A stretch of 64,000 nt of DNA, from assembly GCA_902604225.1 (NCBI GenBank), contig CACKXV010000003.1, forward strand, positions 4,216-68,215, in the 5' to 3' direction. The notes beneath the pieces are model-generated. The model saw only the letters and a list, made by a program, of their open reading frames with translations, made no database searches and had not been told where the DNA came from. A program made the translations under genes and the position numbers. Shown one piece after another: positions 2,162-45,869 of this stretch. Source of the DNA: an uncultured Pelagibacteraceae bacterium (GTDB taxonomy: Bacteria; Pseudomonadota; Alphaproteobacteria; Pelagibacterales; AG-422-B15). Position 1 is the stretch's first letter. Each line of letters opens with the position of its first letter.

Positions 2162-3445
2162 ATGGATTTTAACGATACACCGCAAGAAGCTGAATTTAGA
2201 AAAAAAGTAAGATCTTTTCTAGAAGCCAATGCAGAAAAAAGATCTACTCTAGCTGCAAAGCCAAAGGGTGACTCAGGATCTTCTATTTCAAGCGCTGGAG
2301 CACCAGAAACTGTTAAAGGTGAAGATGCTGCAAAGGTAGCGCTAGACAATGCTAAAGAATGGCAAAGAAAAAAAGCTGATGCTGGATTTGCTGCTATACT
2401 ATGGCCAAAGGAATTCGGAGGATACGGAGGAACACCTATAGAACAGGTTATATACGCTCAAGAAGAACACGACTACTTTGTTCACTCAGGATATTTTGAA
2501 ATTGGAATAGGCATGCTTGGACCAACAATGATGGCTTGGGGTAAGGATGAGGACAAAAAAAGATTCCTTCCAAAAATGATTACAGGTGAAGAAATTTGGT
2601 GCCAATTATTTTCTGAACCCTCAGCAGGTTCAGATTTAGCTGGTATAAGAATGAAAGCAGAAAAAGATGGTGACGAATGGGTATTAAACGGTCAAAAGGT
2701 TTGGACTTCAGGAGCTCATTTTGCCGATTACGGAATGATTGTGGCACGATCTGATCCTACTGCCCTAAAACATAAGGGACTTACTTATTTTTATGTTGAT
2801 ATGAAAACACCAGGAATTGAAGCTAAACCTATTAAACAGATTTCTGGTTCAGCTAATTTTAATGAAGTTTTCTTTAATGACGTTCGTATACCTGACAGTC
2901 AAAGAATTGGTGCAGAGGGTGACGGGTGGAAAGTATCACTTACTACTTTAATGAATGAAAGATTAGCGGTAGGGGATCCTCCAGGCTTGGATTTCGACCA
3001 AATTTTTGAAGCCTCTAAAGAGATTGAAGTTGAGGATGGTCTTGCTGTAAAAAATAGTGAAGTAAGACAAAAAATGGCAGACTGGTATATCCAATCGCGC
3101 GGTTTGCAATATACGAAATACAGAAGCATGACCGCTTTATCAAAAGGCCAAACACCTGGACCTGAGCTCTCAATAAGTAAACTAGTCACAGCATCAAAAA
3201 TGCAAGATGTATCGTCTTATGCTCTAGATTTGATGGATATGTCAGGCATGGTTCATCAAGATCAAAATCCGATTCTTAAAAACTTATTCCAAAATGGTTA
3301 TTTTTTCTCTGCTGCCATGAGAATTGCTGGTGGCACTGACGAAGTTTTAAGAAATATTATTGCAGAAAGAGTTTTAGGTTTGCCGCAGGATGAAAGGTCA
3401 GATAAAAAACTGCCTTTCAATGAGTTGCCGTCTGGTAAAAACTAA
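2162..3445 (+). CDS. acyl-CoA dehydrogenase family protein (large subunit)
   Basis: WCQLFSEPSAGSDLA, NGQKVWTS, FNEVFF, IAGGTDEVLRNIIAERVLGLP. Confidence 0.92.
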   Translation: MDFNDTPQEAEFRKKVRSFLEANAEKRSTLAAKPKGDSGSSISSAGAPETVKGEDAAKVALDNAKEWQRKKADAGFAAILWPKEFGGYGGTPIEQVIYAQEEHDYFVHSGYFEIGIGMLGPTMMAWGKDEDKKRFLPKMITGEEIWCQLFSEPSAGSDLAGIRMKAEKDGDEWVLNGQKVWTSGAHFADYGMIVARSDPTALKHKGLTYFYVDMKTPGIEAKPIKQISGSANFNEVFFNDVRIPDSQRIGAEGDGWKVSLTTLMNERLAVGDPPGLDFDQIFEASKEIEVEDGLAVKNSEVRQKMADWYIQSRGLQYTKYRSMTALSKGQTPGPELSISKLVTASKMQDVSSYALDLMDMSGMVHQDQNPILKNLFQNGYFFSAAMRIAGGTDEVLRNIIAERVLGLPQDERSDKKLPFNELPSGKN

Positions 3446-3455
3446 TATCAGTTAA

Positions 3456-4307
3456 GTGTTTAGTACAATTTTTAGCAATGTTGCGTCAGGCGACTTGCTC
3501 TTTTCTATTTCTTTATTGATCGCCACAGGCATTTTTGCTGGTTTTATAGCGGGTCTTTTTGGCATTGGAGGAGGTGTAGTCGTAGTGCCCGCTCTTTACT
3601 ATATTTTTACTCTAGCTGAAGTAGATGAAAGTATAAGAATGCACTTAGCAGTTGGAACATCACTTGCGAATATTGTTCCAATATCAATTATTTCTGCAGT
3701 AAGTCATGCTAGGAAAAATTCTGTAAATATAGAATTCTTAAAGTTTATATTTCTTTCTATAATCGTGGGCGTTACTTGTGGCTCTGTTGCAGTGTCTTAT
3801 CTGGAGGGAAGCACGCTTATTTTGATTTACTCAATAATATTATTATTTGTCGCAGCGCAGTTTTTTTTCTGGCAAGATAAATGGAGACTATCTTCTTCTT
3901 TTCCTCAAAATTTCACTGGTCATGGATTCGGTTCAGCAATTGGCTTTCTCTCAGTGATTATTGGAGTAGGTGGTGGGTCAATAAGTATCCCTATACTCAA
4001 ACTATATAATTTTGAAATTCACAAAGCGATAGGAACAGCAGCTGGAATTGGGACAATAGTTGCTGTACCTGGAACAATTGGATTTATGATTGCAGGCTTG
4101 CAAAACAATGTCGATTTGCCACTTTCCTTTGGCTATGTAAGTCTTGTAGGACTTATATTAATTACGCCTATTACAATAATTGGGGCGCCGATTGGAGTCA
4201 AGTTTGCTCACTATTTATCTAAAAGTAAGTTAAATCTTCTCTTTGGAATATTCATCTTATTTATGTCGATCAGGTTCTATCTGGAATGGTTATCATTAAC
4301 CAGTTAA
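3456..4307 (+). CDS. TauE/SafE (TSUP) family membrane transporter
   Basis: Two GLFGIGGG / IIGVGGG repeats, AVGTS and AIGTAA motifs, multiple TM segments; GTG start. Confidence 0.88.
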   Translation: MFSTIFSNVASGDLLFSISLLIATGIFAGFIAGLFGIGGGVVVVPALYYIFTLAEVDESIRMHLAVGTSLANIVPISIISAVSHARKNSVNIEFLKFIFLSIIVGVTCGSVAVSYLEGSTLILIYSIILLFVAAQFFFWQDKWRLSSSFPQNFTGHGFGSAIGFLSVIIGVGGGSISIPILKLYNFEIHKAIGTAAGIGTIVAVPGTIGFMIAGLQNNVDLPLSFGYVSLVGLILITPITIIGAPIGVKFAHYLSKSKLNLLFGIFILFMSIRFYLEWLSLTS

Positions 4308-5810
4308 TTTCTGATCATATTCACCAACCTTACCTGTCTGATCGAGAAGTTCATTTATATAATTAAAAATTAACTCAACTTCATTATTAGATTCATAGCT
4401 TTCAATAACAATGACCAAAGACGGTTTATTTGAAGAGGCCCTTACTAGTCCCCATGAACCATTTGAAAGTTCAAACCGAATACCATTTATTGTTGTTATT
4501 TTTTCAATATTTTGACTACCAACTGTTGCCCCTTTTTCTTTTGTGTCTGTGATTTTTTTTATAATTGAGTCTACAACTTGATACTTTTCACCATCTTCAC
4601 AATAAGGGGCCATCGTTGGTGACTGAAAAGTCTTTTTAATTTCTAATTTCTTATCTGATAGTTTTTTTGTTATTCCATTACTTAAATATTGAAGCATTAG
4701 ACAAGCAGATTTTAATCCATCATCAAAACCCAGTCCCAATGGCTCATTAATAAAAAAATGACCACTTTTTTCGAAACCACATAGTGCGCCAATTTCTTTC
4801 ACTCTTCTTTTTATATGAGAATGACCTGTTTTCCACATATCGATTACACAATTATTTTCCTTTAAAATAGAACTTTCATAATAAAGTCCAGTGGACTTCA
4901 CATCGATTACAAATTTTGATTCTGGATAATCATTTGATAAGAATTCTGATAGTAATAAGCCTATTTTATCAGAAAATATTTCTTCCCCTTTATCATCAAC
5001 TACACCAAGCCGGTCACCATCACCGTCAAAAGCAAATCCTATATCAGCATTATGCTTAATGACATTTTCTGATAAGTCCTTGAGCATTACTAAGTCTTCA
5101 GGGTTTGGATTATAGTGTGGAAATTTAAAATCTAAATCGCAGTGTAACTCAATCACTTCGCAGCCCAATAGTTTTAGTAATTCCGGCGCAAATACTCCGG
5201 CGGTTCCATTACCACATGCAACAACAACTTTGATTCCTTTTTTAATTTTTACACCTGAAGAGAGGTATTTAATGTATTCATCCTTCACCCCTCGAATAAA
5301 TTGATAGATTCCATTATTTTCTATCTTTGCGTTATGATTGTTATCAACAATTTTTTTAATTGAGCTTACTTCTTCAGGCCCAAAAGTAAGTGATTTTTCT
5401 ATTCCACATTTAATTCCAGTCCAGCCATTTTCATTATGACTGGCAGTTATCATTGCTAAACTATCTGTATTTAAATGATGTTGAGCAAAATAAACCATTG
5501 GTGACACTGAAAGTCCGACATCCATTACTTTTAAACCTGAGGATAATAAACCTTTAACGACATGATATTTTACCTCTTCGCTATACGATCTATAATCATG
5601 ACCAACTACGACTGAAGAACCGCTTCCTTTTACATCAGATATATATTGGCCTAAACCATAACCAAAAACCTCAAGGCCTTGTTTATTTATCTGATCTGGA
5701 TAGAGCCACCTGGCATCATATTCCCTAAATCCATAAGGAGAAATATTTGCAACTTCGTGTTTTTCATTAAAGTCAAAACTGAGCTCAGTTTGTAATTCAA
5801 ATATTTTCAT
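4296..5810 (-). CDS. phosphomannomutase/phosphoglucomutase
   Basis: FREYDAR, TASHN phosphoserine loop, FDGDGDR, FEKSGH; ATG at 5810 preferred over 5843 because of an AAGG RBS. Confidence 0.92.
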   Translation of the reverse strand: MKIFELQTELSFDFNEKHEVANISPYGFREYDARWLYPDQINKQGLEVFGYGLGQYISDVKGSGSSVVVGHDYRSYSEEVKYHVVKGLLSSGLKVMDVGLSVSPMVYFAQHHLNTDSLAMITASHNENGWTGIKCGIEKSLTFGPEEVSSIKKIVDNNHNAKIENNGIYQFIRGVKDEYIKYLSSGVKIKKGIKVVVACGNGTAGVFAPELLKLLGCEVIELHCDLDFKFPHYNPNPEDLVMLKDLSENVIKHNADIGFAFDGDGDRLGVVDDKGEEIFSDKIGLLLSEFLSNDYPESKFVIDVKSTGLYYESSILKENNCVIDMWKTGHSHIKRRVKEIGALCGFEKSGHFFINEPLGLGFDDGLKSACLMLQYLSNGITKKLSDKKLEIKKTFQSPTMAPYCEDGEKYQVVDSIIKKITDTKEKGATVGSQNIEKITTINGIRFELSNGSWGLVRASSNKPSLVIVIESYESNNEVELIFNYINELLDQTGKVGEYDQKLTG

Positions 5811-5852
5811 TTTTGCCTTGAGTATTTGATAAGAATATAACATATTAATAAC

Positions 5853-6043
5853 GTTGGTTCACGTAAAGTGAATAACAGGGAATAAGGTTCAAATCCTTAG
5901 CTGTACCCGCAACTGTTACTCAGGAGTTTGAATACAGGTGCCACTGATTTAATCGGGAAGGCGTATTCAAGTTAAGAAAGAGAAGTCAGGAGACCTACCA
6001 ACAAAATATAGTCATCCACACGTGATCGGGATAATCATTTGGA
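5853..6043 (+). ncRNA. cobalamin riboswitch
   Basis: P1 GTTGGT/ACCAAC; AACAGGGAA-AAGGTTCAAATCCTT; CCCGCAACTGT; GCCACTG...GGGAAG; TTGAATAC/GTATTCAA stem; B12 box AGTCAGGAGACCTACC; downstream hairpin loop CGGG (6027-6030) complementary to CCCG (5906-5909); precedes a TonB-dependent receptor. Confidence 0.95.
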
Positions 6044-6082
6044 CACAATTTGTTTGCGGTGACTTCAAACTGGAGGCAAAAC

Positions 6083-8305
6083 ATGACTAAAAAATTAGTA
6101 ATATCATTTTTTATATTTCTAACATTTTTAAGTACCGTAAATGCAGAAATACCGCAGATACTTATTCAACCTAGTAGCGAACAATATACAAGACTATCGT
6201 CTGGACTAGCTGGAGCAAATATTACAATCATTGATGAGAAAATTCTTAAAACTCAACTAAACAAAAACCTTCCTCAGATAATAGAAAAATATTCAGGTAT
6301 AGAAGTCAGAAGACTTTACGATGGTGTTGAAGGAACTAATTCATCATTTGATATGAGAGGTTTTGGAGAGGCTTCAAAATCAAATGTACTAATTCTTATT
6401 AATGGTAATCGATTAAATAATATTGACATGTCTAATGTGAGCTTTTCTCACATACCAATTACATCAATTGAAAGAATTGAAATTGTTAGAGGTGGCTCAG
6501 CGGCCACTCTTTACGGTTCAGGAGCAGTTGGTGGGTCAATAAATGTAATTACCAAAAATGATGTAATAGACAATAGGACTAATATTTCTCTTGGTACGTA
6601 CAATACTCAAAAAATTAATTTCAATATAGGTTCTAAAGTAAATGATCACAGTTCTTTAGCTCTTTCTGCGTCAGGTTCTTTCAGTGATACTTTCAGAGAT
6701 GCGGCAGAGTATGAAAATCAAAATTTTATAGTTAATTATAAAAATAAAATAGAAGATGCGACACTTAGTTTAGATTTGTTTTCCTCCTCTAAAGATCAGG
6801 ATTTACCAGGACCTCGTGTAAAAGGTGGGGCTGTATATAATTATCATTTTTGTAATCGTTATGAAGATAGTAGAACGGCAAAACATATAGGTGGATCAAC
6901 TGCAACAAATGGAGATAGCTGTAACACAAATCAAAGGGATGATTACGCTGAATCAGAAAACAATAGGATCAATGCTAATATCAAATATGACGTAGATACT
7001 CTTAATAAGCTATTTATCAATTTGGGATATAAAGAAAGAATCGATAAAGCTTTTCTGGCTGCAAACGGAAACACTATTAATACTCCAAGCGACGGAGATA
7101 GGTATTTAAGAACTGAGACAGACAATAATTTGTTTAATATTAGATATGAAACAAGGCAAGTCGAAGAGACTCATTCAAATATATTAAACTTTGGTTTTGA
7201 AATTGGACACGCTTTCTATAATTCCAAAAGGTATAGAAATGAAAATGAGGCATTAGGTCATAATTATCATGCTAGCTTAAAGACGAGAGCGTTTTATCTT
7301 CAAAATACTTATTATAATAACAGTCTTGATCTAGCACTTTCGTTTGGAGCAAGACAGGAAAGATCAGAAAGTGACGCTAGAGACGAAGTTTATAGAACAG
7401 TTTCAGGTTTTATAAATTCATGGGATGCAACTGACCATGATACTTATGACAATAGTAGGAATAATTATGCCTATAATATAGGCTTTGAGAAAGGTATCGA
7501 TAAAAATCTTTCGTTATATGGAAGTTATTCAGAGTCATTTAGGATTCCTAATATTGATGAAAATATCAAAGCAACAACCTCAGGATCGTTTCATTTGGAA
7601 GATCAAGAGTCTGAAGGAATAGAAGTTGGCATCCTATATAAAACTAATATGTTAAGTCTAAATGCTAGCTACTACATTTTAGATACAAAAAATGAGATAC
7701 AATACAATCAATCAGTTAATACAAACCTTGATCCAATTGAGCGACAAGGTCTCAATATAGATTTAGAATATTTAGTTGAAGAAAATAGTAAAGTAACTGT
7801 ATCAGTCAACTTTACAGAAGCTGAATTTACTGCCGGAACATTAACTCCTGGGACAGGAGGCTCGAGTACATGTAGTTATACAAATACAACATACTGCAGC
7901 AATTCTTCGACCTGGCAAAATTTAATGGGTGGCGGCGCTTCTTTTAGTCTTGCTGGGAAATCAGTACCTTTAGTTGCTCCGCTTACTTATAGTGTTAATT
8001 ACGAAAATAAATTAAGAAATAATATTATATTTAATTTAGGTATTAAATATAATGACGAAAAATACGTTTCAAATGATCCTGAAAATATAGAGCCAAAAAT
8101 ACCTGACTATTATCAAGTTGATACTTCAGTTAATTCTACAAATGGACCTTATATTTTAACTTTCGGTATCAATAACATTTTTGATAAAAAAATATATGAC
8201 TTTGCTGTTTCAAGTACTTTTCATGATGATAATCACTACGGACTATCTAATGTATATCCTTTACCCGAAAGAAATATATTCTTTGATTTAGCGTATACTT
8301 TTTAA
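6083..8305 (+). CDS. btuB: TonB-dependent receptor, probable cobalamin transporter
   Basis: Signal peptide, plug motif IERIEIVRGG..LYGSGAVGGSINVIT, C-terminal Phe; GGAGG RBS before ATG 6083; substrate inferred from the riboswitch. Confidence 0.85.
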   Translation: MTKKLVISFFIFLTFLSTVNAEIPQILIQPSSEQYTRLSSGLAGANITIIDEKILKTQLNKNLPQIIEKYSGIEVRRLYDGVEGTNSSFDMRGFGEASKSNVLILINGNRLNNIDMSNVSFSHIPITSIERIEIVRGGSAATLYGSGAVGGSINVITKNDVIDNRTNISLGTYNTQKINFNIGSKVNDHSSLALSASGSFSDTFRDAAEYENQNFIVNYKNKIEDATLSLDLFSSSKDQDLPGPRVKGGAVYNYHFCNRYEDSRTAKHIGGSTATNGDSCNTNQRDDYAESENNRINANIKYDVDTLNKLFINLGYKERIDKAFLAANGNTINTPSDGDRYLRTETDNNLFNIRYETRQVEETHSNILNFGFEIGHAFYNSKRYRNENEALGHNYHASLKTRAFYLQNTYYNNSLDLALSFGARQERSESDARDEVYRTVSGFINSWDATDHDTYDNSRNNYAYNIGFEKGIDKNLSLYGSYSESFRIPNIDENIKATTSGSFHLEDQESEGIEVGILYKTNMLSLNASYYILDTKNEIQYNQSVNTNLDPIERQGLNIDLEYLVEENSKVTVSVNFTEAEFTAGTLTPGTGGSSTCSYTNTTYCSNSSTWQNLMGGGASFSLAGKSVPLVAPLTYSVNYENKLRNNIIFNLGIKYNDEKYVSNDPENIEPKIPDYYQVDTSVNSTNGPYILTFGINNIFDKKIYDFAVSSTFHDDNHYGLSNVYPLPERNIFFDLAYTF

Positions 8306-35561: not shown

Positions 35562-36254
35562 ATGAAAGTATTAATGCTAAATCCCGGAGATCACGTAGCC
35601 ATATCGTTTTGGTTAATCTCTATGGCCATGGTCGCAGCTACAGCTTTCTTCTTTCTTGAAAGAGACAGAGTAGCAGCTAAATGGAAGACGTCCCTCACAG
35701 TAGCCGGTTTGGTTACTGGTGTTGCGGCGTGGCACTATTTCTACATGAGAGGCGTATGGGTTGCTACTGGTGACTCACCAACAGTCCTTCGATACATTGA
35801 CTGGTTGATCACTGTGCCTCTACAAATTGTAGAGTTCTATGTAATTCTTGCAGCAATGACTGCTGTTGCTTCAGGCCTATTCTGGAGACTGTTAATCGCA
35901 TCTATAGTGATGTTGGTTGGTGGTTATCTAGGTGAAGTTGGAGCGATGAATGTAACTCTAGCATTCGTAATAGGAATGGCTGGATGGTTATATATCATCT
36001 ACGAAATTTTTGCAGGAGAAGCAAGCAAGGCAAGTGCTGGTAGTGGAAATGCTGCTGGTCAAGCTGCGTTCAACGCGTTGAGATTGATCGTTACAGTAGG
36101 TTGGGCGATTTATCCAATAGGTTATGCAGTAGGTTACTTTGGTGGCGGCGTAGACGCTGGTTCACTGAACTTAATCTATAACCTTGCTGACTTTGTTAAC
36201 AAAATTGCATTTGGTATGGCTATTTATGTAGCTGCAGTATCAGACAGCAATTAA
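35562..36254 (+). CDS. proteorhodopsin (DTE proton pump, Gln at the tuning site)
   Basis: WHY (His75 equivalent), RYIDWLITVPLQIVEF (D97/T101/Q105/E108 equivalents), NLADFVNK retinal Lys; 7 TM. Confidence 0.97.
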   Translation: MKVLMLNPGDHVAISFWLISMAMVAATAFFFLERDRVAAKWKTSLTVAGLVTGVAAWHYFYMRGVWVATGDSPTVLRYIDWLITVPLQIVEFYVILAAMTAVASGLFWRLLIASIVMLVGGYLGEVGAMNVTLAFVIGMAGWLYIIYEIFAGEASKASAGSGNAAGQAAFNALRLIVTVGWAIYPIGYAVGYFGGGVDAGSLNLIYNLADFVNKIAFGMAIYVAAVSDSN

Positions 36255-36274: not shown

Positions 36275-36302
36275 AAAAGGGGCCTTCGGGCCCCTTTTTT
36301 TT
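36275..36302 (+). terminator. intrinsic terminator after proteorhodopsin
   Basis: AAAAGGGGCC-TTCG-GGCCCC-TTTTTTTT; C(UUCG)G loop. Confidence 0.93.
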
Positions 36303-36361: not shown

Positions 36362-36449
36362 GGCCTCATGGCGGAATTGGTAGACGCAAAGGACTTAAAA
36401 TCCTTTGGGATTTATTCCCGTCCCGGTTCGAGTCCGGGTGAGGCCACCA
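36362..36449 (+). tRNA. tRNA-Leu (TAA)
   Basis: GGCCTCA/TGAGGCC acceptor stem, anticodon loop CTTAAAA, long variable arm, GTTCGAGTC, CCA end. Confidence 0.96.
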
Positions 36450-36505: not shown

Positions 36506-37393
36506 ATGAGAAATCTTAGAGCTTGTATTTATTTAATCTTTAGTATTTTTCTTTTAATGGGCATCTCAAATGCCTCTAATTTAGAAAATAGAGTTACTTC
36601 ATATTTTAATAACTTAGTTAACAGCTTAGGCACAAGTGTTTCATCATTATTGGGTGAAAATGGAAGGGTGAAGTACCTCGATTTAAACTTAGGTGTGCAA
36701 GAGCATTTAAAGCCAACTATATCACTTACGAATGTAAATATGATATCAGAGTATGGCAATAGCGCTATTTTTAATCAAAACTCTCTTAATCTGCATAATA
36801 ATGATCAAACAATTAATCTAGGTGTAGGACACCGAACTCTTCTAAACGATGATAAAGTTATATTTGGATTAAATATATTTTTTGATTATGCATTTGATGA
36901 CTCACATCAGAGAAATGGAGCGGGCTTAGAGGTTATAAGTAGTGTTTTTGATTTGAGATCTAATATTTATGACGCTTCATCTGGCATCGAAACAGTTTCG
37001 ACAGGTAAAGATGAAGAGGCGATGGACGGATGGGATGCACGTCTTGATTATCATTTACCGATTAAAGCAAATGCAAGACTATTTGCAGGATTATATGAAT
37101 TTGAAAATGCTGCGGGTTCATTTGAAGTAGAAGGCGAAAAATACGGTCTTAATATAATTAGTAATAGTCTAGATTTAGAGGTTGGATATATCGATGACAA
37201 CAAAACAGGTGATGGTTCATTTGCAAATCTTAGTTATGTAATACCTCTTGGTAGTAATGGTTCTTTTTCAAATAACTCCTCTAGTTATTTGGAGTACGTA
37301 TCTGTTGCTGATAGAATGTATGAACCTGTTAAAAGAGAAAATAAGATTAAAGTTGTCACAACAACATTAAATGTTAAGGCAAGCGGGTTTTAA
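36506..37393 (+). CDS. inverse autotransporter (intimin/invasin-type) beta-barrel without passenger, copy 1
   Basis: Signal peptide; TINLGVGHR, GLNIFFDY, HQRNGAGLE, NIY, EEAMDGWD strands; ends shortly after the linker-like RMYEPVKRENKI. Confidence 0.85.
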   Translation: MRNLRACIYLIFSIFLLMGISNASNLENRVTSYFNNLVNSLGTSVSSLLGENGRVKYLDLNLGVQEHLKPTISLTNVNMISEYGNSAIFNQNSLNLHNNDQTINLGVGHRTLLNDDKVIFGLNIFFDYAFDDSHQRNGAGLEVISSVFDLRSNIYDASSGIETVSTGKDEEAMDGWDARLDYHLPIKANARLFAGLYEFENAAGSFEVEGEKYGLNIISNSLDLEVGYIDDNKTGDGSFANLSYVIPLGSNGSFSNNSSSYLEYVSVADRMYEPVKRENKIKVVTTTLNVKASGF

Positions 37394-37396
37394 GTT

Positions 37397-38257
37397 ATGG
37401 CCAGATCATTTATTAAGCTTTTGTATTTAATTTTAGTTATAAACTTGTCAGCTATAAATTTTTCTTATGCCGATAGCCACGTTGATAGTTGTACAATCAC
37501 AGGGGGTATTTACGACAAGACCCAAGTAATAGACAATGGATATTGTGCTAGTGCCCCATCAACTTATGAAATAATTGCTTATGAACTGTATTTATGCACC
37601 AGTGCGCCAGCCGCTCCTACCACTACAACAGTAATGGACTTGTCCAATTGTTATAAAAATTGGGAATTAAGTTCAGGAGCTACACTTTCAGTTCAACAGA
37701 ATGCTACCGTAGATGTACCAGGTACAATGACTCGACCTCCAAATGGCACATACACGCATGGAGTTATGTTGATAGATAATTCATTTGGAATAACTGCGTC
37801 ATTACAATTCGACGAAGCGGTCACAGACCAGGATGGAAATTCGGGTGTTTATTGTGGAACAAAAAGTGGTTCTGGTACATATGGCACAGGCGCAGTTCCC
37901 ACGGGTACCTCTGAATGTGGAGCTTCAGAAATAACTGCAGGAAAATTCACCGAGCTATTAACTAGTTTTGATAGTGGGTCTTTTTCAGGAACCGCAGAAG
38001 GAGATAATTTAAATGGGACTTCAGCGAGTATTAAGGGTTATTTAATAGATACAAATTCTTATTTGGCAGAAAATGATGCAGATGTTGATAAACTCCTTGG
38101 TGCAGCTACCTTTGCATCACCGGTAAATTTTACAGAAACTACAACTACGATCACAATGTCTTTTAATGTTGGAGAAGGTATGTCAATGTATAATAATGGT
38201 TCAAATAGAATTGTTTTTGGCAGCGGTCCTTTTCAGGCAGTTATATCTACTGATTAA
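37397..38257 (+). CDS. secreted hypothetical protein, partner of barrel 1
   Basis: Sec-type signal (..FSYA), 6 Cys, T/S/G-rich; motif-level homology to 43861..44928. Confidence 0.8.
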   Translation: MARSFIKLLYLILVINLSAINFSYADSHVDSCTITGGIYDKTQVIDNGYCASAPSTYEIIAYELYLCTSAPAAPTTTTVMDLSNCYKNWELSSGATLSVQQNATVDVPGTMTRPPNGTYTHGVMLIDNSFGITASLQFDEAVTDQDGNSGVYCGTKSGSGTYGTGAVPTGTSECGASEITAGKFTELLTSFDSGSFSGTAEGDNLNGTSASIKGYLIDTNSYLAENDADVDKLLGAATFASPVNFTETTTTITMSFNVGEGMSMYNNGSNRIVFGSGPFQAVISTD

Positions 38258-39021
38258 AACTTAAATTGTTCATTTAGTATACGTTCGTCAAAAGAATGAT
38301 TCTCATCAAAGAGAAGTTCTACTACTTGATCTTTACTCTGATGTACTTCAACAGAACTGATATCTCTAAACTCAGCACTATCGGCCACAGCACTTACGGG
38401 TCTTTTGTTACTTTCAATTATCTCAAATTTCACATTTGACCCATTATTTAGTATTGCACCTTTCCATCTTCTAGGTCGGAAGGCACTTATAGGGGTCAAT
38501 GCAAGAACATCTGCATTTATTGGCAGTATTGGACCATGAGCGGATAGATTATAAGCCGTGCTTCCAGATGGAGTTGAAATTAATATACCATCACAGATAA
38601 GTTCATCTAACCTCACTTTATCATCAACTGAGATTTTGATTTTTGACGCTTGGTGTGTCTCCCTAAGTAACGAAACCTCATTAATAGCAATTGCTTCATG
38701 GATAGAGCCGTTGACACTTATTGCTTTCATTATTAAGGGAGATATTTTAATTGATTGAGATTGATTAATTCTACTTAACAAATCGATTTGATTTGAAGAG
38801 TTCATCAAAAATCCAATACTTCCGTAATTTAAACCAAAGAGAGGAAGGTTTTGAGACATGTGATTTTTTATTGCCTCAAGCATAAATCCATCGCCACCCA
38901 ATACAACGATAACATCTGCGTTATCCAATGTATTTTTTCCGTATTGGTCCTCTAAAGCCCTTTTTTGCTTGATAGCTTCATCATTACTAGATGCTAAAAA
39001 AACTGGATTATTCAAATTCAT
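38254..39021 (-). CDS. nadK: NAD kinase
   Basis: LGGDGFML, GFLMN, INEV, STPSGSTAYNLSAHGP. Confidence 0.95.
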   Translation of the reverse strand: MNLNNPVFLASSNDEAIKQKRALEDQYGKNTLDNADVIVVLGGDGFMLEAIKNHMSQNLPLFGLNYGSIGFLMNSSNQIDLLSRINQSQSIKISPLIMKAISVNGSIHEAIAINEVSLLRETHQASKIKISVDDKVRLDELICDGILISTPSGSTAYNLSAHGPILPINADVLALTPISAFRPRRWKGAILNNGSNVKFEIIESNKRPVSAVADSAEFRDISSVEVHQSKDQVVELLFDENHSFDERILNEQFKF

Positions 39022-39100
39022 GTTAATTTGCCTACTAAAAAGTAATTCTTTATCTTAAAATGCTCATTAATTGAACATCAAAATTTATTAATAAGTACAT

Positions 39101-40594
39101 ATGTCATTAAGTGGTTATATTCTATCAATAGATCAAGGGACAACTAGTTCAAGAGCTTTAATTTTGAGCGTAAATGGGGAAATACTTGCTCAAAAAAATA
39201 TTGAATTTAAACAATATTATCCAGAAAATGGTTGGGTTGAACATGATCCTCTTGAAATAATAAAAACAACAACAGACGCAATTAAGCAAGTTATAGAAGA
39301 GCTTGGAATTAATGCGCAAGATATAGTCGTAGCAGGCATTACTAATCAAAGAGAAACAATCGTCGCTTGGGATAAATTGACTGGGAAACCAGTTTATAAT
39401 GCCATTGTATGGCAGGATAGACGTACAGAAAATTATTGCAATGAGCTCAAAGAGAAAAACTTAATACAAACAATTATATCAAAAACAGGGTTAGTCATTG
39501 ATTCATATTTTTCTTCTACAAAAATAAAGTGGATTATAGAAAACGTCAAGGAAGCAAAAGAATGTCTAAATAATGGAAATTTATTAGTTGGTACAATTGA
39601 TACTTGGTTGATTTGGAATTTTACAAAAGGATCAGAGCATTCTACTGATGTAACTAATGCATCGAGAACAATGCTTTACAATATTACAGAAAATGAATGG
39701 GATGATGAATTATTGAATATATTCGCATTACCAAAGAATATTCTTCCGTATGTTAAAAACTCAGTTGATAATTTTGGAAAAATTGCTTCTGATTTTTTTG
39801 GTTACGAAATTCAAATTGGTGGAGTAGCCGGAGATCAGCAAGCTGCTTCGGTTGGTCAATCTTGCTTTAAAGAAGGTATGGTAAAATCAACGTATGGTAC
39901 AGGTTGTTTTTTACTCATGAATACAGGAAATAATATTATAAAATCGAAGTCAAACCTCCTTTCCACAATAGCTTATAACATTAATGGAAATAAGAATTAC
40001 GCTATTGAGGGGAGTATATTTAACGCTGGAACAGTTGTTCAATGGATGCGTGATGAACTTCAATTTTTTAATAAAGCATCAGAGGTTGAAAGCTTAGCCA
40101 GTATAAGCTCTAATGATATTCATTTTGTTCCAGCATTTACTGGTTTAGGAGCGCCTTATTGGAGGTCAGATATTAGAGGTCAGATTTCAGGTATCACAAG
40201 AGATACTTCAAAAGCTGATATCGCGATGGCAGCTCTCAAATCTGTTTGTTTTCAAACAAGGGATTTATTTGAGTGTCTTTTGAACGATACAAATTTTACA
40301 AGAGAGAAATTTGTAATTCGTGTTGATGGAGGAATGACAAGAAACAACATGATGATGCAATTTTTGTCTGATATTCTACAAGTTAAAATAGAAAGACCAG
40401 TGAACCAAGAGTCTACTGCAATTGGAGCTGCATATTTGGCAGGAATTTTTGCCGGCATTTACAAAGATGTTGCAGACGTTGAAAAATTATGGAAAACTGA
40501 TCGAATATTTGAGCCAAAAATTTCAATTGATCTTGCTGACCAATTTTATGATGGCTGGAAAAAAACAATAGAAAGACTAATAAGCAATGGTTGA
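39101..40594 (+). CDS. glpK: glycerol kinase
   Basis: IDQGTTSSR, ITNQRET, WQDRRT, GDQQAA, KSTYGTGCF, GLGAPYW. Confidence 0.95.
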   Translation: MSLSGYILSIDQGTTSSRALILSVNGEILAQKNIEFKQYYPENGWVEHDPLEIIKTTTDAIKQVIEELGINAQDIVVAGITNQRETIVAWDKLTGKPVYNAIVWQDRRTENYCNELKEKNLIQTIISKTGLVIDSYFSSTKIKWIIENVKEAKECLNNGNLLVGTIDTWLIWNFTKGSEHSTDVTNASRTMLYNITENEWDDELLNIFALPKNILPYVKNSVDNFGKIASDFFGYEIQIGGVAGDQQAASVGQSCFKEGMVKSTYGTGCFLLMNTGNNIIKSKSNLLSTIAYNINGNKNYAIEGSIFNAGTVVQWMRDELQFFNKASEVESLASISSNDIHFVPAFTGLGAPYWRSDIRGQISGITRDTSKADIAMAALKSVCFQTRDLFECLLNDTNFTREKFVIRVDGGMTRNNMMMQFLSDILQVKIERPVNQESTAIGAAYLAGIFAGIYKDVADVEKLWKTDRIFEPKISIDLADQFYDGWKKTIERLISNG

Positions 40595-41336
40595 CGTAAA
40601 AAATTCAGTTTCAAAGGAAGAATGGGATGTAAGAGTTGATCTTGCTGCCTTTTACAGAACAATACCTTACTTTGGTTGGGATGATTTAATATTTACCCAT
40701 ATATCTGCAAGAGTGCCTGGTACTGAAGATCATTTTTTAATAAATCCATATGGATTTTTGTTTGATGAAATTACAGCTTCAAATCTTGTAAAGGTTGATA
40801 TTAATGGCAAGATTATTAGTGAGACCAACAATCCTATTAATCCAGCTGGATTTATAATTCATAGTGCAATTCATGAAGCAAGAAGCGATGCTCATTGTAT
40901 TGTTCATTTACACTCAGATGATGGCGTCGCGGTTGCTTCTTTGAAAGATGGTCTTTTACCCTTGGCACAAACTGGAATGCTTGTGCGTAGCCAAATCGCA
41001 TATCATGATTATGAAGGTGTTGCTCTACTTGAGGATGAGAAAAAAAGACTTGTTGCTGACTTAGGTGACAAAAATTTAATGATTTTACGTAATCACGGCA
41101 CTTTAGCTGCAGGTAAAAATGTTGCAGATGCTTTTACTTATATATACTTTTTAGAAAGAGCATGCACTTATCAAGTTCGCGCAATGGCTGGCAAATTAGA
41201 ATTAAATAATCCATCACCTGAGGCAATTGAAACGACCAGACAGCAAGGTGAAGCTACCCAAGGCATGGCAGGGGCACTTTTATGGCCCGCAGTCAGAAGA
41301 AAGATGGAAAAATTAGATCCATCTTTTATGAATTAG
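40587..41336 (+). CDS. class II aldolase/adducin family protein
   Basis: THISAR, IHSAIH, HLH, LRNHG. Confidence 0.9.
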   Translation: MVDVKNSVSKEEWDVRVDLAAFYRTIPYFGWDDLIFTHISARVPGTEDHFLINPYGFLFDEITASNLVKVDINGKIISETNNPINPAGFIIHSAIHEARSDAHCIVHLHSDDGVAVASLKDGLLPLAQTGMLVRSQIAYHDYEGVALLEDEKKRLVADLGDKNLMILRNHGTLAAGKNVADAFTYIYFLERACTYQVRAMAGKLELNNPSPEAIETTRQQGEATQGMAGALLWPAVRRKMEKLDPSFMN

Positions 41337-41349
41337 AAACGAATTATAA

Positions 41350-41378
41350 TTGACCTTCACACTAATAAGAGACATAGT
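41350..41378 (+). promoter_or_regulatory. probable sigma70-like promoter of fdh
   Basis: TTGACC (41350-41355), 17 nt, CATAGT; AGGAG RBS before ATG 41427. Confidence 0.45.
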
Positions 41379-41426
41379 CACACTCGAAAAAATTGAATAT
41401 CCACGATTATTAAATAGGAGAAAGTA

Positions 41427-42626
41427 ATGAAAATTTTATGTGTTTTATATGATGACCCAAAAGGTGGGATGCCATCAAAGTATGCTTTAGGTGATATTCC
41501 AAAATTAGATAAGTATCCTGATGGAATGACACTTCCATCACCTAAAGCAATAGACTTCACACCTGGAGAATTACTAGGCTGCGTATCAGGTGAACTTGGT
41601 CTAAGAAAATTTCTTGAAGATGCTGGACATACACTTGTCGTTACATCTGATAAAGATGGCGATGGCTGTCAAGCTGACAAAGAATTGGTTGATGCAGATG
41701 TAGTTATATCTCAACCGTTCTTTCCATACTATCTAACAAGGGAAAAGATGGAGACAGCTCCAAATCTTAAAATGGCTATTACAGCAGGTATCGGATCAGA
41801 TCATGTTGATTTACAAGCCGCAATGGATCGTAAAGTTGATGTTGTAGAGGTAACTTTTTGTAACTCAAGATCAGTTGCAGAACATATTGTTATGCAAATT
41901 TTATCTTTAGTCAGAGATTACCACAATCAACATAGAATTATTAATGAAGGTGGATGGAATATTGCTGATGCTGTACAGCGCTCTTATGACCTTGAAGGTA
42001 TGCACGTAGGAACTGTAGCAGCTGGTCGTATTGGTTTAGATGCTCTAAGAAAATTAAAACATTTTGATGTTCATATGCACTACTTTGATCGACATAAACT
42101 ACCTGATGAAGTTGAAAAAGAATTAAACCTTACTTTTCATGAGTCAGTTGAGTCTATGGTAAAGGTTTGTGATGTAGTAACTATTAATTGTCCGCTACAC
42201 CCTGAAACCGAGCATATGTTTAACGATGAGTTAATAGGTAAGATGAAAAGAGGAGCATACATTGTAAACACTGCTAGAGGTAAAATTTGCGATAAAGATG
42301 CAATTGCCCGCGCACTTGAATCCGGTCAGCTCAGTGGTTATGCAGGAGATGTATGGTTTCCCCAACCAGCACCAAATGATCATGTATGGAGAACAATGCC
42401 TCATCACGGAATGACCCCACACACCTCTGGAACGTCGCTATCAGCGCAAGCAAGATATGCTGCAGGTGTAAGAGAAATCCTTGAGTGTTTCTTTGATGGA
42501 TCACCTATAAGAGATCCATATCTTATTGTTCAAAATGGCGAACTAGCTGGTATGGGAGCGCATTCCTACAGTAAAGGTACTGCAACAGGTGGCTCTGAGG
42601 AAGCGGCTAAGTACCAAAAAAAATAA
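41427..42626 (+). CDS. fdh: NAD-dependent (metal-independent) formate dehydrogenase
   Basis: ISQPF, AGIGSDHVD, NSRSVAEH, VAAGRIG, NTARG, DVWFPQPAP, TPHTSG. Confidence 0.95.
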   Translation: MKILCVLYDDPKGGMPSKYALGDIPKLDKYPDGMTLPSPKAIDFTPGELLGCVSGELGLRKFLEDAGHTLVVTSDKDGDGCQADKELVDADVVISQPFFPYYLTREKMETAPNLKMAITAGIGSDHVDLQAAMDRKVDVVEVTFCNSRSVAEHIVMQILSLVRDYHNQHRIINEGGWNIADAVQRSYDLEGMHVGTVAAGRIGLDALRKLKHFDVHMHYFDRHKLPDEVEKELNLTFHESVESMVKVCDVVTINCPLHPETEHMFNDELIGKMKRGAYIVNTARGKICDKDAIARALESGQLSGYAGDVWFPQPAPNDHVWRTMPHHGMTPHTSGTSLSAQARYAAGVREILECFFDGSPIRDPYLIVQNGELAGMGAHSYSKGTATGGSEEAAKYQKK

Positions 42627-42636
42627 TTGATTTTTC

Positions 42637-42664
42637 TATAGGACGGAAGAAATTCCGTCCTATA
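42637..42664. repeat. perfect 12-bp inverted repeat with GAAA loop
   Basis: TATAGGACGGAA-GAAA-TTCCGTCCTATA between fdh and the next gene; no U-tract follows on either strand. Confidence 0.8.
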
Positions 42665-42668
42665 TAAT

Positions 42669-43295
42669 ATGCATATGAGTAGCGTTTTCAAAAATTATTT
42701 TTCTCATTCAACCGTAATCGGCTTTATCTTGATGGCTGTATTTGGTACATTTTACATATTCAATACTGGTTTTATAAATGAGTATCTAATTTGGTTATTT
42801 ATTCCAATTTTACTTGCTCCATTTTATGAATGGTATGTTCACAAATACCAGCTACATGTTGAGCTTACAAAAAAAGATGGTTGGTATAGAAGATACCAAA
42901 TAGTTCTTCATCATGGACATCATCGAGATCCCGATAATATTAAACTTCAGTTCGCACCTTGGAGATATCTTATTTACACATACGGTCAGGTTTATTTATT
43001 TTATTCATTAATTTTTTGGAGTTTTGGTGCTGCCATGGTTCCATTTACTGGACACCTCATCTATCATCTTTGGTACGAGTGGATTCATCTAGCGCACCAT
43101 TCAAAAAACTATAAACCTTTAACCAAAATTGGTAAAAGTCTTCGTGATGCGCATATGAGTCATCACTTTCATAATGAAAACTATAATTGGGGCATTACAA
43201 ATATGATTGGCGATTATTTTTTCAAAACTCTAAAAGATAATAAATCTATTACTAAAAGTCCTACTACTAAATCAATTAACGGCTATACAGATTAA
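42669..43295 (+). CDS. fatty acid hydroxylase/sterol desaturase family protein
   Basis: His boxes EWYVHKYQLH, HHGHH, YEWIHLAHH, HMSHHF..NYNWG. Confidence 0.88.
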   Translation: MHMSSVFKNYFSHSTVIGFILMAVFGTFYIFNTGFINEYLIWLFIPILLAPFYEWYVHKYQLHVELTKKDGWYRRYQIVLHHGHHRDPDNIKLQFAPWRYLIYTYGQVYLFYSLIFWSFGAAMVPFTGHLIYHLWYEWIHLAHHSKNYKPLTKIGKSLRDAHMSHHFHNENYNWGITNMIGDYFFKTLKDNKSITKSPTTKSINGYTD

Positions 43296-43312
43296 TTTTT
43301 TTTTAATGTCAT

Positions 43313-43357
43313 CCCCACACGGACTTGAACGGCGAACCTATTGATTATAAGTCAATT
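43313..43357 (-). repeat. degenerate direct repeat of the 3' half of tRNA-Thr (att-like)
   Basis: 42/45 identity to 43713-43757, offset exactly 400 bp. Confidence 0.92.
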
Positions 43358-43401
43358 AGTAGATATACTATTAAATTATTATTAAAAATATGGAGAAATA
43401 A

Positions 43402-43674
43402 ATGTTTGTATCTTTTACCGATTGGGAATTTGACGGAAATGTTGAAAATGCCGTTGAAAATATGAAAGGTTTTTGGCCTGAGATGAAGAAGCACGGAGCA
43501 ACTAATATGCGTGCAACAGTCACGGGCGAAAAAACACTTAGAACGATGACTATTTGGAGCAGCGAAGAACAAGTGAAAGCTAATATTGATGAAATTAGAG
43601 CAGCAGCTGGTAAAGCAGTTGGCATGACCACAACAGGTGGAATGATGGGTACAGTCGCAGTTGAGCTTGACTGA
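43402..43674 (+). CDS. 90-aa hypothetical protein (possible ABM-like alpha/beta barrel)
   Basis: GGAG RBS; beta-alpha-beta-beta-alpha-beta pattern with a TIWSSEE motif; fold is inferred. Confidence 0.75.
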   Translation: MFVSFTDWEFDGNVENAVENMKGFWPEMKKHGATNMRATVTGEKTLRTMTIWSSEEQVKANIDEIRAAAGKAVGMTTTGGMMGTVAVELD

Positions 43675-43706
43675 TTAATTAATGAGAAGTATTTTTTGTA
43701 ATTAAG

Positions 43707-43782
43707 TGGTGCCCCCACACGGACTTGAACCGCGAACCTATTGATTACAAATCAATTGCTCTACCAATTGAGCTATAGGGGC
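43707..43782 (-). tRNA. tRNA-Thr (TGT)
   Basis: Reverse complement GCCCCTATAGCTCAATTGGTAGAGCAATTGATTTGTAATCAATAGGTTCGCGGTTCAAGTCCGTGTGGGGGCACCA, 76 nt. Confidence 0.97.
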
Positions 43783-43860
43783 GAAAAAACTTTCAATAAT
43801 TTACTAAACACTGAAAGTTGTAAAAAGTTATAAATTACATACAATTTTTAGTCTATAGAT

Positions 43861-44928
43861 TTAATCTGATATAGTAATCGTAACAGATGGGCGCCCTACA
43901 TCCAGTGTACAGAATTCTGTCCCAGGGCTTGTATCTTCGTCAGCAGTGTATTGTGCAAACTGTGCCCTTAGTCCGCCTGTAACATCAAATGCCATTCTAA
44001 GAGTAGGGGGTGTATCTGATGTTCTTGTATAGGGAGAAGTCAGTTTATAAATCATAACAAGACCTTCATCGGAAGACGATAAACCACCTTGCCAGATAAT
44101 TTGCCTTGTTATTTCATTGCCAGTCCCATCTTCCTGCCACACTCCAGAGTAATCATTATAATAACTATAATTTCCACATGATGAGGTTGTTGTTTTTGTA
44201 TAGCCCGCTGTATCAAGAGGAGGAACTGAAGCAAATTCTAATTCTTGAAAAGTTGTAAAATCTCCCGAGTTACAACCTGCGTTCCAGTCAGGTGTAGCTT
44301 GAGGGTTATCTTGACTATTACCTCTTGCTTCTGACCAAGATGAAGTACTAGCATTTCCAGAGTAATCGTCATTACCAGGTCCATTCAGAAAATATATAGC
44401 TTGCTCACTCGGCGTTCCTGTTGTTGAGCCAAGTGGCGCCGATGATCCGTTTGTATTGGTATTAGAACTGTTTGTTACGCATAGGCTTAAATTTCCATTA
44501 TAATTTGAATTGCTTTGCCATTGAATCGTATCTCCATTCGCATCTTTTGGTTCTACTGATCCTGTCAACCACATTGTTCTGGAAATAGTTGCCTTCATAT
44601 AATTAAAAGTTACATTTTTAGGAATACCGTCTGTACCAGCAGCAGTACAAGCTACAGCCCCTGGAGATACACCCGCTATATCGCATCTGCCATTATCTTC
44701 TGTCACATTTGGTGTAAAAGTAACATCATTTGCTCCATTGCATATTCCTGTCGAAACATCAAAAGACTCGCAGAGTTCCATAGATAGCGGTTTGACTTTG
44801 AATACGGTAGGTGTTCCATAAGCTCCATAAGTCCATGCTTGAGATACATTTGAATTTGCTATGGCATTAGTTAATGCGAATAAAAGAATTGTGACTTTTA
44901 GAAGAAATAATTTTGCAATATGAATCAT
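43861..44928 (-). CDS. secreted hypothetical protein, partner of barrel 2
   Basis: Sec-type signal (..NAIA), 8 Cys, S/T/N/G-rich; motif-level homology to 37397..38257. Confidence 0.8.
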   Translation of the reverse strand: MIHIAKLFLLKVTILLFALTNAIANSNVSQAWTYGAYGTPTVFKVKPLSMELCESFDVSTGICNGANDVTFTPNVTEDNGRCDIAGVSPGAVACTAAGTDGIPKNVTFNYMKATISRTMWLTGSVEPKDANGDTIQWQSNSNYNGNLSLCVTNSSNTNTNGSSAPLGSTTGTPSEQAIYFLNGPGNDDYSGNASTSSWSEARGNSQDNPQATPDWNAGCNSGDFTTFQELEFASVPPLDTAGYTKTTTSSCGNYSYYNDYSGVWQEDGTGNEITRQIIWQGGLSSSDEGLVMIYKLTSPYTRTSDTPPTLRMAFDVTGGLRAQFAQYTADEDTSPGTEFCTLDVGRPSVTITISD

Positions 44929-44930
44929 GT

Positions 44931-45869
44931 TTAGGTGCCTCTGGTTATTATTATTCCACCTTCGCCAGTTTTTTGGGTAATTATACTATTTGTTCTTCTC
45001 ACTTTGCCTAACATTTTATCTGACATATCGACAAGTGGAAAAATATTTTCAGAGACCGTTTCATTGAAAATGGTTGGGGTTGATTTGTCATTAGGCCACT
45101 TAAAAGTTAGCTTATAAAAATCTTCATCATTTGAACTATTATCAATATCATTTCTTCCATACTCAAAAATAATACCCTGATGCAGGTTAGCTTCAAGTGA
45201 CATTCTGTTGCCTTCTAAATCTGCTCCTTGTCTGTCCCAACTGTAACCAGTATAAACAATTTTAGCCCAAGGTAGATAAGGAGCGGTTCCCACAATTGAG
45301 TAATCATAGCCATTAACAACTTCTTCGAGAATAGTTGAAGATCCAGAAGTATAACTCACTCTTTCGGACAAACGGTCGTAAACATTTGCATAAAGTTGAA
45401 AATTATTAGCTAAATACTCAATACCAATACTTCCTCTTTGATGACCTTCATCAAATTCATAATCGTGAAAAATATTTACTCCTAAGACTGCACTATTCTT
45501 ATTTGTCAATGCTCTAAAGCCAAGTCCTGCATTTAAGACAGTTCTTTCATCGCCATTAGCAAATGGTTCCTGGTTACCTATTCGTAACTGAGTAAAATAT
45601 AAATGTTTATCATTTAGTTGATCATACGGATTTATAACAATTGGTCTCACAACAAGAGCTGAGTACTTCAAGTCATAATTATCTTGTTCCGAAATTGTTA
45701 TTTCAGTAACACCTTCACCGGGAATCAGTTCAGATATTGAGTTGCCTATGCCTGCAAGGCCTTGAGATAGTTTATCGTCAATAATTTTACTAAGTGTATC
45801 ATTAGCACTTACTGCAAAAGCAGATGATAAAAATAGGAATAGGATAGTTAACTTTCTAAATAAAGACAT
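44931..45869 (-). CDS. inverse autotransporter (intimin/invasin-type) beta-barrel without passenger, copy 2
   Basis: Signal peptide; VLNAGLGFR, GVNIFHDY, HQRGSIGIEY, ANVY, EEVVNGYD, PYLPWA; ends shortly after KMLGKVRRTNSI. Confidence 0.87.
   Translation of the reverse strand: MSLFRKLTILFLFLSSAFAVSANDTLSKIIDDKLSQGLAGIGNSISELIPGEGVTEITISEQDNYDLKYSALVVRPIVINPYDQLNDKHLYFTQLRIGNQEPFANGDERTVLNAGLGFRALTNKNSAVLGVNIFHDYEFDEGHQRGSIGIEYLANNFQLYANVYDRLSERVSYTSGSSTILEEVVNGYDYSIVGTAPYLPWAKIVYTGYSWDRQGADLEGNRMSLEANLHQGIIFEYGRNDIDNSSNDEDFYKLTFKWPNDKSTPTIFNETVSENIFPLVDMSDKMLGKVRRTNSIITQKTGEGGIIITRGT

Follow-up and report, generated by a model that had tools for sequence, protein, structure and literature searches.

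Two-partner inverse autotransporters, exemplified by ZirT/ZirS(/ZirU) of Salmonella, are encoded by a gene for an intimin-type outer membrane barrel followed by a gene for a separate Sec-exported protein, sometimes by several of these (PMC2270342 and PMC4943183). ZirT is required for ZirS secretion, apparently at matched stoichiometry (Gal-Mor 2008, PMC2270342). The class is defined in Heinz 2016 (PMC4943183), which also notes "invasin_beta-only" groups; its Tables S5 and S6 include, among the operons of Fig. 8A, an invasin_beta protein of "Ca. Pelagibacter" HTCC7211 with its downstream gene, a candidate member of the partner family described below. The window studied here, a 64,000-nucleotide stretch of contig CACKXV010000003.1 from an uncultured Pelagibacteraceae bacterium, contains two cassettes of this kind. 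Each consists of a short barrel gene (B1 or B2) and a gene for a partner protein with a predicted signal peptide (S1 or S2), the distance from stop to start being 3 nt in cassette 1 and 2 nt in cassette 2 (Table 1). The cassette is a widespread, uncharacterized version of the two-partner inverse autotransporter and a stripped-down relative of ZirT/ZirS.

A preliminary description, made from the DNA alone, had reported this two-gene architecture at two places, with the second gene starting 2 to 3 nt past the first; all four open reading frames are found at the coordinates it gave. Its appeal to ZirT/ZirS as a precedent also holds, since there too a barrel gene is followed by a separate signal-bearing protein. 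Unlike ZirT, SinH, and Yfr4, which keep immunoglobulin (Ig)-like domains and have substrates resembling them, B1 and B2 are devoid of such domains. They are the only IAT_beta barrels in the source genome, which is 56% complete. The partner family and docking by a barrel tail are not described in the literature searched, which excluded the subscription papers Prehna 2012 and Leo 2015; the main texts of SAR11/HIMB59 papers, searched by term, contain no mention of autotransporter or invasin.

Barrels of type Ve with a short C-terminal tail

Both barrels match the IAT_beta domain (Pfam ID PF11924), with scores of 97.9 and 94.7 bits (E values of 9.8e-28 and 9.7e-27; cutoff, 22.3 bits), as the preliminary description had anticipated. 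A profile built from 53 barrels aligns through the linker to invasin (PDB ID 4E1T; E = 1.6e-23) and intimin (4E1S; E = 7.4e-20), so that barrel and linker correspond to these type Ve proteins over the full domain; a signal peptide is predicted by a heuristic. The V, R, N, and I residues of the linker motif are invariant in all 53 barrels. Judging from this alignment, B1 and B2 possess the pore-crossing linker that marks type Ve. Unlike the TpsB component of type Vb TpsB/TpsA systems, they match PF11924 only and not the 16-stranded Omp85 barrels with POTRA domains.

Type Ve proteins normally carry a covalently attached Ig-like passenger after the linker. Such a passenger is absent from B1 and B2, unlike in canonical type Ve proteins, as their open reading frames stop 14 and 16 residues, respectively, past the linker motif. 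The short end noted in the preliminary description is therefore real, and its count of about 13 residues is too low. Across 148 barrel-partner pairs, 146 have tails of 13 to 17 residues. In intimin, the linker spans residues 434 to 444 and the exit strand residues 446 to 449, followed by a four-residue connector and domain D00 (PMC13078405); by this numbering, 9 residues of B1 and 11 residues of B2 lie beyond the exit-strand position.

The tails come in two types, which correspond to the two cassette subtypes described below. Counted back from the C terminus, the 33 subtype-1 tails (ordinary members of the 34-row group) have hydrophobic residues at positions -8, -6, -4, and -1 in 85, 100, 97, and 97% of cases and Gly at -2 in 33/33. 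Subtype-2 tails contain Gly at -9 in 13 of 14 sequences and, in 14 of 14, hydrophobic residues at -7 and -5 as well as Arg at -3. The tail looks like the functional link between barrel and partner. It was also considered as a signal for the β-barrel assembly machinery (BAM). The consensus of that β-signal has its hydrophobic register at odd positions and ends in an aromatic residue; the tails have an even register, and those of subtype 2 do not end in an aromatic residue, so this assignment was rejected.

Partner family

Neither S1 nor S2 has a match in Pfam or NCBIfam. A joint partner profile retrieves 838 clusters at 50% identity, and the best 150 of the 838 are all shorter than 400 residues; a Pfam scan of 133 representatives drawn from these 150 yielded nothing above the cutoff. 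At 90% clustering, S1 has 515 relatives and S2 has 31. Partner sequences show no PDB match below an E value of 0.5 and no similarity to the barrel sequences. By hydropathy and charge, a hydrophobic signal core is predicted in 145 and a basic N terminus in all of the 146 partners at the surveyed loci, with a lipobox-like motif in 2/146. The corresponding figures for 135 full-length representatives are 129 with a signal core and 3 with a lipobox-like motif; 110 of them have six or eight Cys residues in the mature protein. AlphaFold2 models of S1 and S2 are all-β after an N-terminal helix (predicted local distance difference test scores of 84.7 and 73.9, respectively), and the helix accords with the predicted signal peptide in both. 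The view that a passenger-less type Ve barrel is accompanied by a dedicated, signal-bearing protein of an uncharacterized family is thus supported, the signal being heuristic.

The two partners are highly diverged. BLAST finds no match between S1 and S2, hhalign gives 79% when the signal region is included, and S2 scores 7.8 bits against a profile of 117 subtype-1 sequences, with reversed controls negative. When 13 subtype-2 partners of SAR11 and other Alphaproteobacteria are combined into a profile, it reaches 99.6% with the S2 alignment, 99.1% with a broad 94-sequence alignment that contains some subtype-2 rows, and 28% with the S1 alignment over 191 colinear columns. The best reading of these comparisons is that S1-type and S2-type partners form one family.

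A wide fold search with the partner models gives Z scores of at most 4.1. For both models the weak top match is a type V pilin domain of Bacteroidota (PDB IDs 4QB7 and 3SY6; Z = 4.0 and 4.1; root mean square deviation of 3.4 to 3.8 over 111 to 114 residues), a score below significance and typical of a common arrangement. Foldseek searches of PDB and of a viral structure library found no partner match at an E value of 0.001. Type V pilins use donor-strand exchange, and strand donation is the binding principle proposed below for the partner. Unlike these pilins, the partners are not lipoproteins, and their anchor would be an outer membrane barrel. In language-model features, DUF4382 (PF14321) is among the nearest named clusters for both partners (0.87), and short motifs align in order. 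Membership in this family was rejected and homology kept merely as a lead, as there is no Pfam match and hhalign gives 0.4 to 1.2% against 15 DUF4382 domains; the DUF4382 proteins seen are also lipoprotein-like, unlike the partners. The idea that the tail is the first strand of a DUF4382 domain is likewise no more than a lead, since even with the best of three registers the tail ranks among the top 5% of windows along the barrel in only 15/48 cases. A weak search for fused barrel-partner proteins, which left lengths of 502 to 615 residues uncovered for subtype 1, found none among 7,995 candidates of 616 to 2,000 residues. In phages, 0/49 pattern matches to the partner were confirmed.

Near-obligate pairing and phyletic distribution

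The pairing of barrel and partner is near-obligate in both directions. The family to which the window belongs comprises 60 species genomes and is distinct from the larger SAR11 family (141 genomes). The barrel is found in 43 of the 60, at 63 places, and a partner lies downstream of 62 of these barrels: 61 start within -4 to +14 nt, one follows a frameshifted barrel, and the single miss is at a contig end. Conversely, 62 of 68 partner places (with 3 duplicate rows merged) follow a barrel; four of the other six are at contig starts and two are short, weak fragments. A genome scan of SAR11-titled and marine gammaproteobacterial records shows adjacency at 77 of 78 loci (75 by script and 2 by inspection), the last being at a contig start. 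Metagenomes contributed 29 loci: in 23 of them the two genes are adjacent, 5 begin at the edge of a contig, and in 1 the partner is preceded by another partner.

The same holds outside the window's family. IAT_beta is found in 37 of 400 other Alphaproteobacteria, for the most part in proteins with long passengers. Five of these genomes encode the partner, in each case immediately behind a short barrel with a tail (one such barrel is broken); no partner accompanies two short barrels that lack a tail of this kind. The 363 barrel-less genomes of this set gave no partner match. In the SAR11 family, barrels are present in 24 of the 141 genomes, all 24 of which encode a partner (17 found by search and 7 by inspection, the latter being shorter, with 228 to 257 residues), and the 117 barrel-less genomes have no match. 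Partners lacking an adjacent barrel, the occurrence that the preliminary description had singled out as damaging to its reading, are thus almost never seen. An even sample of 400 genomes of the phylum contained no partner, so the module is patchy. Order and spacing of the two genes are the same in Alpha- and Gammaproteobacteria, at unrelated loci, and no metabolic genes are consistently found nearby. Two alphaproteobacterial genomes, G334 and G445, have six or more IAT_beta genes each (frames of 2,400 to 7,100 and 580 to 740 residues) and no partner match.

Two ancient subtypes and exchange of partner alleles

The preliminary description regarded the two cassettes as a duplicated module. This is not supported, because they represent two deep subtypes, each nearer to SAR11 homologs than to the other. 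B1 and B2 share 29% identity. A tree of the barrel body (tail left out) for 48 nonredundant pairs separates 14 from 34 rows with support of 96/91, and a partner tree from a quick search shows the same 14-versus-34 split; long branches leave the deep order within these trees uncertain. Both groups contain members of SAR11 and of the window's family. The low identity and the deep split exclude a recent duplication and reveal two ancient, co-diverged cassette subtypes.

Partner alleles are exchanged between lineages, as is seen from 22 aligned loci next to tRNA-Leu. In L110 and L111, cinA and the proteorhodopsin gene are 95 to 97% identical to those of the window and the barrel is 88 to 96% identical, whereas the partner is only 65 to 69% identical, with the drop at the barrel stop codon. 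Four more distant genomes, with 74 to 76% identity in cinA, carry partners that are 86 to 91% identical to that of the window. With the most divergent partner allele, the 3' half of the barrel diverges too. After correction for overall barrel identity, the identity of the two tail windows correlates with that of the partner (r = 0.66 to 0.67), and the best of 49 other barrel windows reaches 0.45. Mean-field coevolution analysis of 128 pairs (effective number, 48) was underpowered: it placed 3 tail pairs in the top 200, where 7.8 are expected, and its output also held implausible intrachain pairs.

Natural variants

Ig-like domains are absent from 62 of the 63 family loci. The sole exception is G048, a genome of the same genus as the window (L039:1642-3180), where the cassette lies at the third locus used in this genus, after rho. 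Its barrel and linker are followed by two Big_12 Ig domains, a tail of the same kind, and two partner paralogs. Like canonical type Ve proteins, G048 thus has a covalent two-domain passenger, and with these domains between linker and tail, the tail comes to lie at the tip of an Ig stalk. This variant bridges the cassette to canonical type Ve; its tail occupies the position at which a further passenger domain would have its first strand.

In the tandem cassettes of Pelagibacter, each partner usually has its own barrel. The SAR11 genome G910 (L226:2739-13717) has five partner genes and two barrels, with a FecR-domain gene and a DUF2860 gene inside the cluster. At their C termini, the G910 partners share a conserved basic tail that contains several Arg residues and a terminal Trp-Arg; this tail is also found in L237, P0194, and P0245. 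Another SAR11 genome, G860 (L234:4936-5748), encodes a 270-residue open reading frame that joins a barrel N terminus to a partner C terminus and is probably the remnant of a cassette with an internal deletion. In G039 (L048:2661-4690), both barrel and partner are frameshifted, reflecting either a decaying cassette or an assembly error.

Proposed mechanism and alternatives

Export routes were searched for in five near-complete relatives of the source genome. None of the five has a secretin (the control was detected in 6 of 14), and each has a single Omp85 protein of about 750 residues. No type II secretion or TpsB route is therefore found, and the recognized exit for a Sec-exported partner is the barrel with BamA; otherwise, the partner would stay in the periplasm. 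DsbB is present in 5/5 of these genomes and Slam (PF04575) in 0/5, the Slam control likewise having no match. In the available account of intimin-type secretion, the pore is probably a hybrid of barrel and BamA (PMC13078405).

We propose that each cassette may be a split inverse autotransporter, in which the barrel ends shortly past the linker and the partner acts as a detachable passenger. The linker would fill the pore as in intimin, leaving the tail outside, and the last 7 to 9 residues of the barrel would form a docking β-strand to which the partner binds through strand addition. The partner would cross the outer membrane through the barrel/BamA intermediate in the course of BamA-driven assembly and would be held at the cell surface, where a swap of partners would change the surface identity. 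We assign this combination of a docking strand in the tail, export during barrel assembly, and surface retention a probability of about 0.5. In its favor are the near-obligate pairing, the constrained tail that follows partner type, the congruent barrel and partner trees, the Ig-stalk variant G048, the lack of a secretin and of a second Omp85 protein in the relatives, and the ZirT dependence of ZirS secretion. A more specific version is tentative: the barrel may donate one C-terminal strand in trans to a folded, disulfide-bonded partner, which would thereby be completed, exported, and held, the cassette being a swappable surface module with subtype-specific docking codes.

Several observations weigh against the split-passenger model. 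The even Cys counts (six or eight in 110/135), the presence of DsbB in all five relatives, and residues C150 and C340 of S2, which are invariant and hint at a long-range disulfide, suggest folding in the periplasm, and a linker-filled 12-stranded pore cannot pass such a disulfide. None of the fold searches gave a significant match that would point to a strand missing from the partner. The intimin exit residue Y448, highly conserved according to PMC13078405, is replaced by Thr or Lys in these barrels. The correlation between tail and partner may stem from physical linkage, its 1,033 pair comparisons are not independent, and partner alleles that are just 65 to 70% identical share one identical tail. 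Finally, two of the G910 partners lack their own barrel, and one G910 barrel precedes a pair of partner genes. The pairing is therefore not strictly one to one, an arrangement that fits a shared channel.

Such a channel, a minimal version of ZirT/ZirS, would have a reusable barrel whose tail only recognizes the substrate and a partner that is released or loosely attached. It would account for the multipartner loci G910, G048, and L202, and the secretin and Omp85 searches of the relatives revealed no other Sec-fed route. There are parallels in the literature, as ZirS reaches the medium in a ZirT-dependent way (PMC2270342) and a repetitive mechanism has been proposed for multisubstrate operons (Heinz 2016, PMC4943183). 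The same proposal has Ig domains bind the substrate, and the cassettes have none; their linker residues are as invariant as in plugged intimin, and the tandem SAR11 cassettes mostly provide each partner with its own barrel. Shedding a protein of 28 to 35 kDa would also presumably be costly for a streamlined oligotroph. We regard this alternative as unlikely.

We consider it quite unlikely that the partner is periplasmic and binds the tail from the inner side of the outer membrane, serving an open barrel as plug, lid, or binding protein, e.g., in solute uptake. The signs of periplasmic folding and the lack of a secretin to export a folded protein would fit this view, and C-terminal parts of ZirT-like proteins may fold in the periplasm according to Heinz 2016 (PMC4943183). 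However, the linker motif shows the same conservation as in intimin, where the linker runs through the pore, and in G048 the Big_12 domains are inserted between linker and tail. The extreme diversity and allele swapping of the partners would be more in keeping with a surface antigen than with part of a transport system, and a transport role finds no consistent metabolic neighbors.

It is improbable that the barrel only anchors the partner, which its tail would capture on the outside, perhaps as the first in a short chain, with export by BamA alone, by vesicles, or by an unrecognized exporter. For intimin it is established that folded domains cannot pass through the plugged barrel; the weak top fold matches (Z of about 4) are to type V pilin domains; and barrel-less partner paralogs adjoin cassettes. 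These fold matches are below significance, however, and with no secretin and a lipobox in only 2/146 partners, neither a type V pilus nor Slam-type handling of lipoproteins fits. That the two genes are merely coinherited neighbors without interaction, a view with which the missing tail signal in the underpowered residue-level analysis would agree, is very improbable given their constant order and spacing at unrelated loci of Alpha- and Gammaproteobacteria, the lack of partner matches in barrel-less genomes, and the congruent deep split.

Genomic context and expression

Coordinates of the cassettes and the adjacent tRNA genes are listed in Table 1. Both genes of cassette 1 are covered by RNA contigs of 4 runs from 4 studies, and in a relative an RNA contig of 906 nt bridges the gene junction; without a silent-stretch control, these are at most hints of transcription and cotranscription. 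GC content and GC at third codon positions are ordinary at the cassettes, with no signature of a mobile island.

Table 1. Features of the two cassettes and flanking tRNA genes (positions in the window)
Feature	Coordinates	Strand	Description
Barrel B1	36506..37393	+	295 residues; signal peptide, periplasmic helices, IAT_beta barrel, linker, short tail; subtype 1
B1 linker motif, residues 275-281	37328..37348	+	Aligned to intimin V438-I444
B1 tail, 14 residues	37349..37390	+	Exit strand, then alternating hydrophobic strand ending in Gly-Phe; putative docking strand
Partner S1	37397..38257	+	286 residues, 6 Cys, acidic, all-β model; unnamed family; subtype 1
Barrel B2	44931..45869	-	312 residues; architecture as in B1; subtype 2
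B2 linker motif, residues 290-296	44982..45002	-	
B2 tail, 16 residues	44934..44981	-	Gly-rich hinge and hydrophobic strand, Arg at -3; putative docking strand
Partner S2	43861..44928	-	355 residues, 8 Cys (6 invariant), all-β model; same family as S1, but distant; subtype 2
tRNA-Leu	36362..36449	+	Directly upstream of cassette 1; context, outside the system
tRNA-Thr	43707..43782	-	Directly downstream of cassette 2; context, outside the system

Upstream of tRNA-Leu lies a proteorhodopsin gene (35562-36254), the ATG-started frame of which encodes 230 residues and does not include the N-terminal signal region of some relatives (L025 and L049). A functional link to cassette 1 was rejected, since a strong terminator-like hairpin (36275-36298) and the tRNA gene lie in between and other lineages carry the cassette elsewhere.

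At cassette 2, the 3' part of tRNA-Thr is present as a 45-nt direct repeat (93%; 43313-43357 and 43713-43757), which flanks a 90-residue open reading frame (43402-43674) with a weak match to DUF3291. This repeat is an att-like integration scar. In relatives, the same site holds other cargo, such as an HNH endonuclease gene (L047:684-1526) or a 142-residue open reading frame (L045). Farther along are a gene at 41427-42626, which we take to be a single-subunit, NAD-dependent formate dehydrogenase-like gene, and a member of the fatty acid hydroxylase family at 42669-43295 (PF04116; E = 6e-14). Directly upstream of subtype-2 cassettes in L005, L010, L013-L016, L018, L020, L024, L046, and L048 there is an HlyD-like gene, presumably for the adaptor of a type I secretion locus.

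Implications

Heinz 2016 (PMC4943183) leaves open by what mechanism ZirT and other linker-plugged barrels of the intimin type bring a separate protein through the outer membrane. The cassette pair is the simplest natural case of this problem, with about 300 plus 300 residues, two tail types in one genome that do not cross-match, and an Ig-stalk intermediate; deletion and swapping of the tail therefore become direct tests. If the strand is indeed donated in trans, the BamA/barrel intermediate can pass a noncovalent folded passenger, and if the docking model is correct, the cassette could serve as a noncovalent display scaffold. The cassette is common in the family of the window (43/60 genomes) and patchy in SAR11 (24/141). 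As its partner is exchanged between lineages, it is a candidate surface determinant for recognition by phages or grazers in these very abundant marine bacteria.

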